In this document: positions 18,999 through 30,784 of the stretch, piece by piece
Numbering within the stretch: position 1 is the first letter of the stretch
Layout of the letters: every line of letters begins with the position of its first letter
Assembly: GCA_018239725.1 (NCBI GenBank)
Contig: JAFEGU010000114.1
Coordinates: 1 to 53,243, forward strand
Reading direction: 5' to 3'
DNA length: 53,243 bases
From: Verrucomicrobiota bacterium
GTDB lineage: Bacteria > Chlamydiota > Chlamydiia > Chlamydiales > Rhabdochlamydiaceae
Notes under the pieces: generated by a model
Told to the model about the DNA's origin: nothing
The model's database searches: none
The model's input: the letters and a program-made list of their open reading frames with translations, nothing else
Translations under genes and position numbers: made by a program

Positions 18999-20768
18999 AT
19001 GAGTAGATGGGTTAAATTCATTTTTTTATTTTTAGGCGTCGCATCTGCTTTTTTTCTAGGCACACAATTCAAAAGCGATGGAAAGTTTGCAAAAAAAACC
19101 CTCAGCTTATTTCGTTCTTCCAAGGCTCAGCCATCTTATGCCGTCAATGAGCATAAGCCGTTTGTGATCATCGTTCCCTCGTTTAACAACAGTCTGTGGG
19201 TAGAAAAGAATTTAAGATCGATCTTCGAGCAAAAATATGACAATTACCGCGTCATCTACATCAATGATGCTTCGACCGACTCGACATTACTCCAGGTGGA
19301 AGAGCTGGTCGATTCTTGGGGAGAGCGGCATCGGTTCGAGATCGTCAACAATGCGGCTAACCGGGGCGCAATGGAAAATATTTATCGGGCGGTGCATCGA
19401 TGCGATCCTGATGAAGTTGTGCTTGTATTAGACGGCGATGACTGGTTTGCCCATGATCGTGTCCTGGAGAAGTTAAATGAGGTCTATGCCGATCCAGATG
19501 TTTGGGTCACATGGGGCAGTTATGTGGAATATCCCAACTACTCTTCTTATCATGTCGCCAACTTTGCACAGCCGTTGCCTCAATCGGTCATCGACGGCCG
19601 GAAAATCCGTCAGTATTCAAAAAACCATTGGTGCTTTTCCCAGCTGAGGACGTTTTATGCAGGGCTCTTTCAAAAATTAAAGCTCAAAGACCTTGCGTAT
19701 GAAGGGAAGTTTGTTGATGCCGCCAACGACGTCGCCTTTTTTGTTCCTGTTATGGAAATGGCAGGACCTCATGTTCGCTATGTACCGGAAATTTTGTACA
19801 TTTGGAACCGGGCAACCCCTTTAAATGATGACAAGATTAGAGGCAGACGGCAGCTCGAGATTGCGCAAGCGATCTATCGAAGACCCTCTTACATGCCGCT
19901 GCCTGAACTGCCAAAGTCGGAAGAAGATCTGCACCAAACCGCAGATTTTATTATTTTTTCCTATGATAGGCCATTGCAGCTCTATGCCCTTCTTGAGTCG
20001 ATTGAAAAATATTGCTCTGGCATCGAACAGATTACTGTCATTTATCGAAGCAGCGGAGCGGAATACGATGAGGGATATCATCAGGTAAGCGATGATTTCC
20101 CAAATGTCAACATGGTTCAGCAAGGTTCTTCTCCTCATAAAGATTTTCAGCCGAATGTCATCCGCGCTTTGAAAAGCGGCGGCTCTGAATATTTCATCTT
20201 TGCTGTCGATGATATTGTGATTACAGACACGATCGATGTTTCCAAAGGAATATCAGCTCTGCAGAAGACGGGAGCTTATGGCTTCTTTTACCGGTTGGGA
20301 AAAGAGATCAATTACGATTATATGCTCGATATGACTATCCATCAGCCATCCTTTATGCAAGTCGATCAGGATGTCTATGCATGGATATTTAAACAGCAGC
20401 AAGGGTATTGGGGCTATCCGACGTCGACGGATGTGGCCCTTTATAACAAACAGACGGTGCTGCGGCAATTCGACAAGATTACCTTTTCCAATCCTAACCA
20501 GATGGAAAGCGAGTGGCTTAAAGTAGCCAGCCCAAGAAGGGTCGGTCTTTGCCATGAGACCTCTCGAATGGTCAATATCCCTCTGAACCTCGTGCACAAT
20601 TCGACAAACCGCAATATGCAGCGCTTCAGCCCCAAAGAGCTGTTGGAGGCGTTCAACGATAAAAAGAAGATGGATATTGAACCTCTGCACCACTATCTGC
20701 ATCATTCCGCCCATATTGATTATGATCCCACATTTACAGGGAGAGAGCCTAGGGGCGCGAAGCGATGA
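18999..20768 (+). CDS. Two-domain glycosyltransferase: N-terminal anchor, GT2-like GT-A domain, then a second DxD-containing GT-like domain
   Basis: Start placed at MSRWVKFIFLFLGVASAFFLG, because the ORF-track start at 18672 overlaps topA. Domain 1: FVIIVPSFNN...YINDASTD...VLDGDDW. Domain 2: DFIIFSYDRPLQL...IFAVDDIV. Confidence 0.72.
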   Translation: MSRWVKFIFLFLGVASAFFLGTQFKSDGKFAKKTLSLFRSSKAQPSYAVNEHKPFVIIVPSFNNSLWVEKNLRSIFEQKYDNYRVIYINDASTDSTLLQVEELVDSWGERHRFEIVNNAANRGAMENIYRAVHRCDPDEVVLVLDGDDWFAHDRVLEKLNEVYADPDVWVTWGSYVEYPNYSSYHVANFAQPLPQSVIDGRKIRQYSKNHWCFSQLRTFYAGLFQKLKLKDLAYEGKFVDAANDVAFFVPVMEMAGPHVRYVPEILYIWNRATPLNDDKIRGRRQLEIAQAIYRRPSYMPLPELPKSEEDLHQTADFIIFSYDRPLQLYALLESIEKYCSGIEQITVIYRSSGAEYDEGYHQVSDDFPNVNMVQQGSSPHKDFQPNVIRALKSGGSEYFIFAVDDIVITDTIDVSKGISALQKTGAYGFFYRLGKEINYDYMLDMTIHQPSFMQVDQDVYAWIFKQQQGYWGYPTSTDVALYNKQTVLRQFDKITFSNPNQMESEWLKVASPRRVGLCHETSRMVNIPLNLVHNSTNRNMQRFSPKELLEAFNDKKKMDIEPLHHYLHHSAHIDYDPTFTGREPRGAKR

Positions 20769-21703
20769 AAAAGTTCATCAAGGCGGTTTTTTTCATCTTG
20801 GCTTTGCCTATCGTGTTCCTTTTAGGGCTCAACAGCAAAAAAACTCTGGTTTCCCTCAAAAAAAAATGGACTCCAAAAGCGGTGGAAGCTGTGTTCCCCG
20901 TTTTGGAGCATAAGCCCTTTGTTGTCATCGTTCCATCTTTCAATAATGAGAAATGGGTCGCTAAAAACCTCGGTTCGATCTTAGAGCAAAATTACGATAA
21001 TTTTCGCATCATTTACATCAATGACGCTTCGACTGATGAAACGAAGTTTAAAGTTGAAAAATATTTTGAGGAGCATGCGAACGGCATCCCATACGAGCTC
21101 TGGGACAACAGATCGAATCTTGGCGCATCGGAAAACATTTACCGTGCGGTGATGAGCTGTGAAAATGACGAAATCATTGTGATTGTAGATGGAGATGATT
21201 GGCTAGCGCACGATCACGTTTTACAACGTTTGAACGAGGTCTACGCAGATCCTGATGTATGGATGACCTGCGGAAACCACCTTCAATATGTCCCTTATAC
21301 CTTCATTAGGGCTGATGCTGCAGGGGGAATCCCCAAAGAAGTCCAAAACTCAAACAGCCTCCGCTCCTATGTTCAATACAAATATCCCCTCTCACATTTG
21401 AAAACTTTCTATACAGCTTTGTTTAAAAAAGTGAAATTTGAAGATTTTCAGATCGACGGCCATTTTTTTGATTGCACTTCCGATGTGGCTATGATGGTCC
21501 CGATGGCAGAGATGGCAGGATCCCACTACCGCCATATCCGAGATATCCTCTACATCTACAACCATGTGACTCCTATGAACGACGATAAGATCCGGTTTAA
21601 AAGGCAGCAGGAGTGTTTGCACAACATCTGTTCCCGCCCTCCTTACAAACCTTTATCTAATCTTATCCTAGATGCAAATAAGGAGCAGATTGCTAACCGA
21701 TGA
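20765..21703 (+). CDS. GT2-like glycosyltransferase, single-domain paralog of the preceding gene's domain 1
   Basis: MKKFIKAVFFILALPIVFLLGL anchor. FVVIVPSFNNEKWVAKNL...YINDASTDET...IVDGDDWLAHDHVLQRLNEVYADPDVW aligns along its length with 18999-20768. Confidence 0.75.
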   Translation: MKKFIKAVFFILALPIVFLLGLNSKKTLVSLKKKWTPKAVEAVFPVLEHKPFVVIVPSFNNEKWVAKNLGSILEQNYDNFRIIYINDASTDETKFKVEKYFEEHANGIPYELWDNRSNLGASENIYRAVMSCENDEIIVIVDGDDWLAHDHVLQRLNEVYADPDVWMTCGNHLQYVPYTFIRADAAGGIPKEVQNSNSLRSYVQYKYPLSHLKTFYTALFKKVKFEDFQIDGHFFDCTSDVAMMVPMAEMAGSHYRHIRDILYIYNHVTPMNDDKIRFKRQQECLHNICSRPPYKPLSNLILDANKEQIANR

Positions 21704-29758: not shown

Positions 29759-29833
29759 AAAGGCCTTTTACGCATCTTTTGGACGCCAGGTTTTTTAAAC
29801 GTTTCTCGAATTTATTAATAAAAGGAGTCGATA

Positions 29834-30784
29834 ATGAAACCAATTATAAAAATTCTGTTTTGCCTGGTAGCAAGTGTTTTAATTGGCAAGCCGATGCTTG
29901 GAACATCGACAAACTACGTCACATTATGCGATGCAAATGGTCGGTTTAAAACAGGCGATCAATTTGGCGGACAATTGCTGAATATTGTTTCTCTCCTGGC
30001 ATATGCATGGGACCATGATCTCGTGCCCTATTTTCCCAAGGATTTTTTGCTGCGCACCAAGGGAGCTAGCATCAACTACCCCTACGTTTTCAACCGGTTA
30101 AATCAAGAGCTTCCCGATCATGTCGACAAAAGCATGCCGTTGCATATTTCAGATCTCGATTATTCTCTCTATCCAGGACGCAATGTATGTTTGTGCGCGG
30201 CGGGCATCTATCCCTATGCCCACCATCGGGATCGGTTAAGGGAGTATTTTGCTCCCACTGACACAGTCAAGCGATACCTCAATCAAAAATATGAACAGAT
30301 TTTCAATCATCCGAAGACGGTTGCTGTCCATGTGCGCACTTATCATCCCAATATCAACAACACCCTTTTCTTTTTAGGAAGGGAATATTTCCAATCTGCA
30401 ATGAACCATTTTACCGATGACCATCTTTTCGTCATCTTTTCTGACCGGATTGAGTGGGCCAAGCAGTATCTGGCAGGAGCTAAACCGAATATGATTTTTA
30501 TTCATGAAGAGAACCATATTCTAGAGTTTTACTTGATGACCTATTGCCTCAACCATATTATTTCGAATTCTAATTATAGCTTTATGGCTGCATTCTTAAA
30601 AAACAATCCGGCTGGCGCGACCCTAGGACCAGAAATTTGGTTATGCAACACGAAGCCGGAAATGTACTTTGGTATGTATTTCCCAGGCTGTATCACTTTG
30701 CCGGTAGGGGCTTCCCATCCAGCCGATTGGAACTTGCTGAGGTATTCAACGACATCGATCGATGAGGGCGGGCCCAAATATTAA
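29834..30784 (+). CDS. GT11-like glycosyltransferase, paralog 4
   Basis: AAAGGAG Shine-Dalgarno upstream. NGRFKTGDQFGGQLL, HVRTYHP, FVIFSDRIEWAK, HIISNSNYSFMAAFL. Tail TTSIDEGGPKY. Confidence 0.72.
   Translation: MKPIIKILFCLVASVLIGKPMLGTSTNYVTLCDANGRFKTGDQFGGQLLNIVSLLAYAWDHDLVPYFPKDFLLRTKGASINYPYVFNRLNQELPDHVDKSMPLHISDLDYSLYPGRNVCLCAAGIYPYAHHRDRLREYFAPTDTVKRYLNQKYEQIFNHPKTVAVHVRTYHPNINNTLFFLGREYFQSAMNHFTDDHLFVIFSDRIEWAKQYLAGAKPNMIFIHEENHILEFYLMTYCLNHIISNSNYSFMAAFLKNNPAGATLGPEIWLCNTKPEMYFGMYFPGCITLPVGASHPADWNLLRYSTTSIDEGGPKY

Follow-up and report, generated by a model that had tools for sequence, protein, structure and literature searches.

The 53,243-nucleotide metagenomic contig JAFEGU010000114.1 (GenBank assembly GCA_018239725.1, forward strand; called the window in the following, always at its full length) belongs to a genome of the Rhabdochlamydiaceae near Candidatus Acheromyda pituitae. 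Its positions 18999-30784 are occupied by eleven co-directional genes, which code for two glycosyltransferases (GTs) of family GT2, three of family GT32, a methyltransferase (MT), three GTs of family GT11, another MT and a fourth GT11 protein. According to textbook knowledge, bacterial Leloir GTs and MTs that use S-adenosylmethionine (SAM) are cytoplasmic, and beyond the inner membrane lipid-linked donors are used. The enzymes of this block, however, probably work outside the bacterial cytoplasm, as judged from their export signals. The reading that we consider rather probable is that GTs and SAM-dependent MTs exported via the Sec pathway tailor envelope glycans or envelope proteins in the periplasm and that they are fed with donors by the host. 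It is carried by the targeting signals of the predicted proteins, the conservation of these signals throughout the clade and the mutual consistency of the topologies that they suggest; the periplasmic activity, the origin of the donors and the identity of the acceptor are what we infer.

Export signals of the block enzymes

The original prediction, made from the sequence of the window, had described ten consecutive enzymes with hydrophobic N-termini. All N-termini quoted there were reproduced by translation and ten of the eleven block enzymes indeed possess such a leader, but the run is not literally consecutive, because it is interrupted by the third GT32 protein, GT32c (23800-24858).

Signal peptides were called with heuristics of our own, which use the classical features and were calibrated with proteins from the window that are either exported or cytoplasmic. 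A signal peptide for Sec export and signal peptidase I was taken to consist of a basic n-region, an h-region of about 7-15 residues, small residues at positions -3 and -1 and no excess of positive charges after the cleavage site. GT32a, GT32b, the methyltransferases MTa and MTb, the four proteins GT11a-d and a prolyl 4-hydroxylase (P4H) encoded upstream on the minus strand (15481-16179) are built in this way, with h-regions of 8-14 residues according to the heuristic, a -3/-1 site and a neutral or acidic start of the mature protein. GT2a, GT2b and GT32c are not. The predicted signal peptides comprise residues 1-19 of GT32a (21700-22737; VHS-ES, the hyphen marking the cleavage site), 1-20 of GT32b (22734-23807; GFA-IE), 1-23 of MTa (25059-25793; VQS-AR) and 1-25 of GT11d (29834-30784; GTS-TN), and the one of MTb (29018-29758) has the site LES-AS. 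The leaders of GT11a (25840-26826) and GT11b (26837-27811) span residues 1-25 (SIA-TN) and 1-34 (SLA-AN), respectively. For GT11c (27837-28844), the ATG at 27855 (MRRWSTVVF...) is the likely start. The same signal grammar is found in the known exported proteins of the window (OMP 14438, 39452, 40661 and 46783; OMP, outer membrane protein).

Leaders had also been claimed for the P4H and for a Methyltransf_24 MT at positions 585-1223 on the minus strand. The P4H leader (MNRKMKALLFIFMVFIGSNAQQAAA) is clear, whereas the signal of the second protein is weaker (hydrophobic core score 2.0, site TSA-FG).

The homologues of the block enzymes show the same properties. The median length of the h-region is 12-14 residues family-wide, and h-regions of at least 19 residues occur in only 0-7 members per family. 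The mean charge of the n-region lies between +1.2 and +1.4, compared with -0.3 to -1.1 over the 15 residues past the h-region. A -3/-1 site is present in 36 of 42 GT11, 63 of 67 GT32 and 85 of 98 MT homologues. By these sequence features the leaders are cleavable Sec signal peptides, unlike the long signal anchors of type II proteins.

A type II layout of the kind known from Golgi enzymes, which had been the heading of the original prediction, would begin with a short cytoplasmic tail and an uncleaved anchor some 18-22 residues long, from which a stem leads to the catalytic domain. Such a layout does not fit the block enzymes other than GT2a and GT2b, since most leaders are short, cleavable and without a stem, and since GT32a and GT32b carry their membrane anchor at the C-terminus. 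In the AlphaFold2 (AF2) model of GT11d, a helix formed by residues 3-18 is followed by a strand at residues 28-31. The first beta strand thus begins about two residues past the predicted cleavage site and there is no stem.

The C-terminal transmembrane (TM) helix that had been noted for the GT32 proteins is present in all three of them. In GT32a it covers approximately residues 309-333 and is followed by RK..RKR, and in GT32b it is followed by KLIRRK. The order of signal peptide, catalytic domain, C-terminal TM helix and basic tail therefore makes GT32a and GT32b predicted type I proteins.

Lipoboxes are processed only at the outer face of the inner membrane, after translocation. A lipobox, defined as the pattern [LVI][ASTVI][GAS]C closing the h-region, was found in 16 of the 67 GT32 homologues (for example LTACSKK, LIGCQKK and FGCQKK); the proteins of the window contain no convincing one. 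The sequence IVAC of GT11b was rejected as a lipobox, since it is part of the h-region itself and the paralogues do not share it.

Natural fusion proteins, like the lipoboxes, are informative with respect to topology independently of the heuristics. In the syntenic locus L160 of a relative (3702-5822), counterparts of GT32a and GT32b are fused in frame to a protein of 706 residues that preserves the topology signals of both halves. The first half consists of signal peptide, domain A, TM helix and the sequence RALRSPPSRG, the second half of a hydrophobic segment (the former GT32b signal peptide), domain B, TM helix and RRRK. The first C-terminal TM helix and the second signal peptide form a hairpin around the basic loop RALRSPPSRG. 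All basic clusters are located on one side of the membrane and both catalytic domains on the opposite one. According to the positive-inside rule, the catalytic domains would therefore be periplasmic, and the opposite topology would break this rule three times. In relatives, a single polypeptide also combines a clean signal peptide with GT2-GT11, GT92-GT11 or GT25-GT11 (proteins P0259, P0286, P0323 and P0325), the GT92 and GT25 parts being assigned by eye from motifs.

Conservation of the leaders and choice of the start codons

Within the window, 10 of the 11 block enzymes but only 6 of the 27 remaining genes have leaders (Fisher p = 1.5e-4); no leader is present in the GT4, GT9, Gmd and ManC proteins. 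However, the block genes are paralogues from four families, and the cross-family comparison is therefore the stronger test. Among 79 GT32 homologues, 70 have an N-terminal leader and 71 a C-terminal TM helix, with a net charge of the tail between +3 and +8. Nearly all full-length GT11 homologues carry a leader directly before the first beta strand (motif YVTxC..GQLGNQ), and most of the 53 GT11 homologues listed bear leaders. For the MT family 319 homologues were found; of the best 120, 86 are retained under a strict cut on hydrophobicity, and most of the remaining ones also have N-termini resembling signal peptides.

Homologues from viral contigs served as leaderless controls. Approximately 57 non-redundant GT11 homologues of this origin begin at the first strand (MxxVxLxGGLGNxMFQ), with room for a leader in at most two of them, both doubtful. 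A hydrophobic N-terminal stretch is present in two of 52 viral GT32 homologues and a C-terminal TM helix in none. A profile search in 1.84 billion representative proteins returned 29,019 relatives of the GT11 proteins. Leaders are present in 60 of the 71 full-length proteins from the 75 closest clusters, whereas at ranks 76-150 the nucleotide-binding motif lies inside the first 16 residues in 34 of 65 proteins, so that these have no space for a leader. The leaders of the four GT11 paralogues are only 12-28% identical, compared with 64-71% for the mature parts, but their hydrophobicity is kept, which is the pattern expected of a targeting signal. Taken by these sequence comparisons, the leaders are a trait of the clade beyond chance.

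The start codons are consistent with this. The starts of GT2b, GT32a and GT32b overlap the preceding stop codon in the sequence ATGA, the leader ATG of GT11d is preceded by AAGGAG at a distance of 8 nucleotides, with no such element before its internal methionine codon, and the orthologues start at the same positions as the proteins of the window.

GT2a, GT2b and GT32c

The two GT2 proteins at the beginning of the block, GT2a (18999-20768; Pfam GT2, 5e-22) and GT2b (20765-21703; Pfam GT2, 5e-20), deviate from the other enzymes, having h-regions of 14-16 residues followed by a conserved Lys-rich stretch. The hydrophobic stretch of GT2a covers residues 7-20 (an h-region of 14 residues), has no credible cleavage site and is followed by 15 residues with a net charge of +3. 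The one of GT2b covers residues 7-22, and the 15 residues behind it carry a charge of +5 that is conserved in the orthologues. From their sequences, both look like uncleaved anchors, the orientation of which is ambiguous by charge. P0259, however, contains a GT2 domain with which GT2b shares 42% identity (E 1e-65). This protein begins with a clean signal peptide, and its second GT domain is a GT11 domain from the leader-bearing clade. This likeness draws GT2a and GT2b toward the compartment of the GT11 enzymes despite their charge.

The GT2 domain of GT2a comprises residues 57-178. Farther on, some 290 residues (residues 300-589; window 19896-20765) form a conserved C-terminal domain, for which neither Pfam (E ≤ 1) nor a profile search against the PDB nor hhalign against the GT2 domain gave a match. 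It contains the motifs FIIFSYDRPLQL and FAVDD. In the related locus L010 (5205-6014) this domain is retained, although the GT2 domain before it has lost the DxD motif; the homologue there is located behind a 20-residue anchor predicted to be oriented N-in.

The N-terminus of GT32c reads MNKTRSTLASILLKLIKGSKRKK and there is no in-frame start upstream of it. The corresponding sequences of its orthologues are ...LTLIFGCEKKK (L006), ...LTLTYGCGKKK (L008) and ...FFTVGCGKKK (L160), and in the window and in Ca. Acheromyda (L007) the sequence LIKGSKRKK occupies the position of the lipobox (window 23800-23900; L006 1351-1459, minus strand; L008 7803-7910; L160 5815-5920). Since LIKGS stands where the orthologues have IFGC, TYGC or TVGC, the signal of GT32c is a decayed lipoprotein signal peptide. 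GT32c may by now reside in the cytoplasm as a tail-anchored enzyme, or the protein may be about to be lost.

Enzyme families, folds and origins

GT11a-d match the Pfam family PF01531 with 51-59 bits at a cut-off of 23.9 (GT11a with 5e-16), these matches covering the C-terminal half of the model only. A GQLGNQ-type motif is present, and H166 and R168 of the nucleotide-binding motif are invariant (alignment A2). The AF2 model of GT11d (model confidence, pLDDT, 84.6) is matched by Foldseek to FUT8, AtFUT1, NodZ and POFUT1, which are GDP-fucose fucosyltransferases. By Pfam, fold and motifs, the GT11 proteins can be predicted to form a fucosyltransferase-type family with a GT-B domain.

GT32a-c match PF04488 with 43-55 bits (cut-off 23), and D162 and D164 of their DxD motif are invariant (alignment A3). 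The proteins have a length of approximately 345-357 residues and are made up of a Sec signal, the catalytic domain and the C-terminal TM helix without extra domains; GT32c likewise has a DXD-containing GT-A domain and the C-terminal TM helix. They had been labelled as Och1-type, which fits poorly, because GTs of the SetA, YeGT, PaTox and TcdA type are far closer. The GT32 profile finds SetA with 5e-17, TcsL with 7e-11, YeGT with 2e-10 and Och1 with only 1.2e-3. With the AF2 model of GT32a (pLDDT 88), in which the N- and C-terminal helices stand isolated, Foldseek ranks YeGT, SetA and PaTox before Och1. The GT32 DxD and the GT11 H166/R168 residues are thus retained, and the AF2 models match enzymes using UDP-sugars and GDP-fucose.

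MTa and MTb match Methyltransf_24 weakly and below the cut-off (21.6 and 22.5 bits, respectively, at 26.3), and the protein encoded at 585-1223 reaches 73.7 bits (2.5e-20). Some MTa homologues have a precomputed PF13578 match. A class I SAM-dependent MT fold is likely for MTa and MTb on these sequence grounds. For GT11, GT32, MT and P4H proteins there were no matches in NCBIfam, which gave generic GT2 matches only.

The P4H matches the Pfam family 2OG-FeII_Oxy_3 of 2-oxoglutarate- and Fe(II)-dependent oxygenases with 66.8 bits (cut-off 27). Its best solved relative is P4H-1 of Chlamydomonas (1.2e-59, 205 bits, residues 36-227), followed by P4H of Bacillus anthracis (1.7e-39, 139 bits) and human P4HA2 (5e-25). 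Gene sharing between chlamydiae and algae or plants is therefore a possible explanation for this gene. With an algal enzyme as the nearest one, the locus also touches on the old question of whether chlamydiae and eukaryotes have shared genes.

A descent of the whole set from the Golgi apparatus of a eukaryotic host, one of three options in the original prediction, finds a divided answer. The sequence comparisons do not support a eukaryotic origin of the GT32-like proteins, which are nearer to SetA, YeGT and TcdA than to Och1, nor one of the GT11 proteins, the nearest leaderless neighbours of which are short proteins of phage or bacterial type. They do suggest one for the P4H, the only enzyme of the set that is nearest to a eukaryotic one. 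A link to giant viruses was looked for as well, but the homologues on viral contigs are distant (at most about 37% identity) and were not taken to indicate gene exchange.

Related loci and neighbouring genes

Upstream of the block there are genes for a WaaL-like ligase, Wzm, Wzt, Gmd, a GT4 protein and ManC (6260-13085, plus strand; the leaderless part of the locus), followed by a polytopic membrane protein, an OMP beta-barrel and the P4H. The ligase (Wzy_C) and the GT4 protein were assigned by Pfam, and Wzm, Wzt, Gmd and ManC from the translations only. The polytopic membrane protein (441 residues; 13033-14358), which lies between ManC and the OMP, has no match in Pfam or NCBIfam. Its function might be that of a polymerase, a GT-C enzyme or a transporter, which could make it relevant to the question of donors or acceptors.

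A scan of species-representative genomes detected three syntenic loci, including the one in the metagenome-assembled genome (MAG) "Candidatus Acheromyda pituitae". As in related chlamydial loci, topoisomerase I of the window has a C-terminal SWIB domain. This TopA-SWIB fusion and the synteny with the window are also seen in L008 (contig JAFEGV010000016, labelled "Verrucomicrobia bacterium SZAS-9"), and it appears that this MAG, or at least the contig, is chlamydial and mislabelled.

Enzymes with export signals are not restricted to these close relatives. In a 3.3-Mb chlamydial genome (L009, 1344-10706), ten consecutive enzymes all have signal-peptide-like leaders, namely a 307-residue protein without family, a GDSL esterase, a GT10 protein, two NodZ/FUT8-like proteins, an MT, a GT11 and a GT92 protein, a further MT and a DUF268 protein. 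In a genome of 2.09 Mb (L157), a GT61 protein and two MTs have signals, whereas Ugd, an epimerase, one MT and a GT2+GT1 protein are leaderless; this set adjoins Wzm/Wzt and TopA-SWIB. Two GT32 genes, one of them with a lipobox, adjoin topA in a genome of 1.9 Mb. Signal-bearing genes for GT10, GT23-like, GT61, GT92 and MT proteins (including DUF268) occur in other chlamydiae, often next to Wzm/Wzt. The window and L157 reveal the same division of labour: the sugar-nucleotide enzymes and the polymer GTs of the GT4/GT1 type are leaderless, and the tailoring GTs and some of the MTs have leaders.

The genes for MTs and GT11 proteins are arranged in the order MT-GT11x3-MT-GT11 in the window (25059-30784). 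The corresponding part of L007 (9137-12890) consists of a truncated MT (an open reading frame, ORF, of 171 codons), GT11, MT and GT11, the one of L008 (9071-10939) of MT-GT11, and the stretch examined in L006 (9941-10903) contains one GT11 gene without an adjacent MT gene. The copy number hence varies among close relatives, which suggests rapid tandem duplication and loss. Past the cluster, L007 possesses two more signal-bearing genes on the minus strand (13124-13897 and 14247-15101) that are absent from the window and code for a DUF268 protein (Caenorhabditis-type, methyltransferase-like) and a 284-residue protein without family.

Some further genes of the window deserve mention. The gene at 30851-31627 codes for a protein of about 240-260 residues that contains an HExxH motif (AHEIVHAVR) and has two hydrophobic segments in its C-terminal part. 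It is found 3' of the GT cluster in every relative examined (L006 10946-11728, L007 15357-16133, L008 11056-11832, L010 8113-8829, L160 8152-8934), directly in most of them and with two genes in between in L007. No Pfam or NCBIfam family was found for this protein, which could be a membrane metalloprotease linked to the pathway. The protein encoded at 31810-33105 (minus strand) combines a Gln/Pro-rich low-complexity N-terminus with a PARG-like macro domain, is kept in L007 and L008 and may be an effector. A ThyX-like protein (1352-3004) has about twice the usual length (550 residues) and matches Pfam Thy1 in two stretches. Two adjacent paralogous ORFs of about 420 codons, the products of which begin similarly (MAIQPANN... 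and MAIKPINR...), are located on the minus strand at 50378-51658 and 51709-52974.

Discussion

In the proposed mechanism, the Sec pathway would move the GTs and SAM-dependent MTs of the block over the inner membrane of an obligate intracellular chlamydia. GT32a and GT32b would reside there as type I proteins, the catalytic domain being periplasmic and the basic tail behind the C-terminal TM helix cytoplasmic. After cleavage of their signal peptides, GT11a-d, MTa, MTb and the P4H would be soluble in the periplasm, or possibly further out, and GT2a and GT2b would be held by an uncleaved N-terminal anchor. The exported enzymes would then act stepwise on a substrate that is already outside the cytoplasm. 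Candidates for this acceptor are the polysaccharide exported by the adjacent Wzm/Wzt system and WaaL-like ligase or, alternatively, envelope proteins; given the toxin-like fold of the GT32 proteins and the P4H gene nearby, protein O-glycosylation deserves to be taken seriously as an alternative. The donors GDP-fucose, UDP-sugars, SAM and 2-oxoglutarate would be supplied by the host.

Such a localization raises the problem of donor supply, which had been called a paradox. The problem is real, but the extracytoplasmic use of host nucleotide sugars by pathogens is documented (PMC4829429, PMC4324315). In C. trachomatis, host UDP-glucose enters the inclusion via the recruited transporter SLC35D2 and is used there by the secreted glycogen synthase GlgA (PMC4829429), and the outer-membrane enzyme Lst of gonococci uses scavenged host CMP-N-acetylneuraminic acid (CMP-NANA; PMC4324315). 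Moreover, chlamydiae import host SAM via a transporter in the inner membrane (PMC3104491), so SAM has to pass the periplasm. In an obligate intracellular chlamydia, everything imported from the host crosses the outer membrane and the periplasm first. By analogy, we infer the same host supply for GDP-fucose and the other donors of the enzymes described here.

Several observations weigh against the periplasmic reading. GT2a and GT2b are more positive after their hydrophobic stretch than before it and may therefore face the cytoplasm, and GT32c has lost its export signal in this genome. The conserved cysteines (1-3 columns per family) form no clear disulfide signature. The signal-peptide calls are based on our own heuristics and on comparative arguments. 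Neither a candidate for a nucleotide-sugar exporter nor one for a GDP-fucose synthase was seen in the window, and we know of no environmental chlamydia in which a supply of nucleotide sugars to the periplasm has been shown. Finally, the literature that we searched on GTs of chlamydiae and environmental chlamydiae contained nothing on exported GTs, neither for nor against.

If export itself is accepted, the enzymes might still not stay in the periplasm. Type II secretion or vesicles, for example, could carry them across the outer membrane to the inclusion lumen or to host membranes, where they would remodel glycans or proteins of the host instead of the envelope of the bacterium. A second anchor is missing from GT11a-d, MTa, MTb and the P4H, the GT32 kin SetA, YeGT, PaTox and the large clostridial toxins all glycosylate host proteins, and C. 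trachomatis offers a precedent in secreted GlgA, which uses imported host UDP-glucose in the inclusion lumen (PMC4829429). Nevertheless, we regard onward secretion as unlikely, since the C-terminal TM helix of GT32a, GT32b and 71 of their 79 homologues, many of which are in addition lipid-anchored, argues for retention at the inner membrane, since domains for toxin translocation or receptor binding are missing and since several genomes have these genes grouped with those for Wzm/Wzt, WaaL and sugar-nucleotide enzymes, an arrangement that suggests a glycan of the bacterium itself. The reverse possibility is that the leaders are uncleaved anchors with domains facing the cytoplasm, where the block enzymes would be ordinary O-antigen enzymes using cytoplasmic donors. 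This would agree with the textbook site of Leloir GTs and SAM-dependent MTs, with the neighbouring Wzm/Wzt pathway, which polymerises in the cytoplasm, and with GT2a and GT2b, which lack a cleavage motif and possess a basic stretch (+3 and +5) that is conserved in orthologues. We judge it to be quite improbable for the set as a whole and conceivable for GT2a and GT2b only. The h-regions of the GT11, MT and GT32 proteins, with 12-14 residues followed by -3/-1 sites and acidic residues, speak against it, as do the lipoboxes of 16 GT32 homologues and the basic tails behind the C-terminal TM helices. Cytoplasmic domains would also place three basic clusters of the L160 fusion in the periplasm, and a domain of the GT2b type occurs behind a clean signal peptide in fusion with a leader-clade GT11. 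Of the three options given in the original prediction, export is thus the one favoured by the signal-peptide grammar, the lipoboxes of homologues, the basic-tailed TM helices and the natural fusion.

It is also conceivable that the set was taken from the endoplasmic reticulum (ER) and Golgi apparatus of a eukaryotic host and that the leaders are inherited eukaryotic targeting signals. Families typical of secretory glycosylation in eukaryotes are indeed represented, with GT11 and P4H in the window and GT10, GT23-like, GT61, GT92, GT25 and DUF268 in relatives, and the P4H scores 205 bits with Chlamydomonas P4H-1 but 139 bits with the Bacillus enzyme. However, the GT32 profile prefers SetA (5e-17) to Och1 (1.2e-3), the GT11 clade has diverged deeply, matches Pfam only in part (51-59 bits) and has its nearest leaderless neighbours among short proteins of phage or bacterial type, and the homologues from giant viruses and phages are at most about 37% identical. 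The leaders themselves resemble bacterial signal peptides and lipoboxes, not long stemmed anchors. We consider such an origin of the set improbable. That the leaders are artefacts of mis-called starts or of chance hydrophobicity is barely conceivable. Gene callers do sometimes start at an internal methionine (P0004, P0011, P0063 and P0073), but an open hydrophobic extension is conserved over hundreds of diverged homologues and absent from the viral controls, and the ATGA overlaps as well as the Shine-Dalgarno sequence of GT11d belong to the long starts.

The enzyme families and single extracytoplasmic Leloir enzymes are already known. In contrast, a conserved battery of Leloir GTs, SAM-dependent MTs and a P4H with Sec or lipoprotein signals in an envelope-glycan locus has apparently not been reported in the literature that we searched. 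The export signals concern at least ten enzymes in one locus and hundreds of homologues over the environmental chlamydiae. If the periplasmic reading is true, these bacteria would use activated sugars and methyl groups from the host to modify their envelope or host material, which would be a new type of metabolic parasitism and a new route of surface variation, a route that the variable copy number of the MT-GT11 module would fit. With the cultivable relatives Simkania, Parachlamydia and Rhabdochlamydia, there is a concrete system in which these predictions can be tested.

Comparison with known systems

With regard to its gene content, the window resembles an O-antigen pathway of the ABC-transporter type, having Wzm, Wzt, a WaaL-like ligase, Gmd, ManC and a leaderless GT4 protein, and in L157 a comparable set stands next to signal-bearing MTs and a GT61 protein. 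The known modifications of O-antigens in the periplasm are carried out by GT-C enzymes with lipid-linked donors or by acyltransferases, and capping by methyl groups takes place in the cytoplasm. To our knowledge, no O-antigen pathway with Leloir-fold GTs or SAM-dependent MTs bearing export signals has been described.

The sialyltransferase Lst of Neisseria gonorrhoeae belongs to family GT52. In what it does it is similar to the enzymes proposed here, being an extracytoplasmic Leloir GT that decorates the lipooligosaccharide of its own cell by alpha-2,3-sialylation with a host nucleotide sugar (PMC4324315). However, it is a single enzyme from an unrelated family in a facultative extracellular pathogen, whereas the window of an obligate intracellular bacterium codes for at least ten predicted enzymes of four families plus a putative hydroxylase. 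The glycogen synthase GlgA of C. trachomatis is another example of chlamydial nucleotide-sugar enzymes acting outside the bacterial cytoplasm on host UDP-glucose (PMC4829429), but GlgA and the other glycogen enzymes are type III secreted without Sec signal peptides and produce a storage polymer instead of a surface decoration.

The GT domains of the effectors and toxins SetA (Legionella), YeGT (Yersinia), PaTox (Photorhabdus) and TcdA/TcdB (clostridia) are the closest solved relatives of the GT32 proteins in sequence as well as in fold, and share with them the DXD-containing GT-A domain and an N-terminal helical part. They reach the host cytosol through the Dot/Icm system or by translocation domains of their own and modify host proteins. 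The GT32 proteins of the window and its relatives, in contrast, lack delivery domains; they carry a Sec or lipoprotein signal and are anchored in the membrane at the C-terminus.

The comparison with the eukaryotic Golgi apparatus goes beyond single enzymes. It is a possibility, held only tentatively here, that glycosylation and methylation proceed stepwise after export in the periplasm, possibly also in the inclusion lumen, by Leloir GTs, SAM-dependent MTs and a P4H fed by the host, and that this system is a functional counterpart of the Golgi. A Golgi-like pathway of this kind would be possible only because the periplasm of an obligate intracellular bacterium is continuous with a metabolite-rich compartment. 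It would overturn the rule that bacterial Leloir GTs are exclusively cytoplasmic. The Golgi GTs (FUT1/2, Och1) and the P4H of the ER and Golgi also act stepwise on the non-cytoplasmic side of a membrane and share the families GT11, PF04488 and P4H with the window. Their layout, however, is that of type II proteins, in which a long signal anchor stays uncleaved and is followed by a stem, whereas the leaders of the chlamydial enzymes are mostly short, cleavable and stemless.

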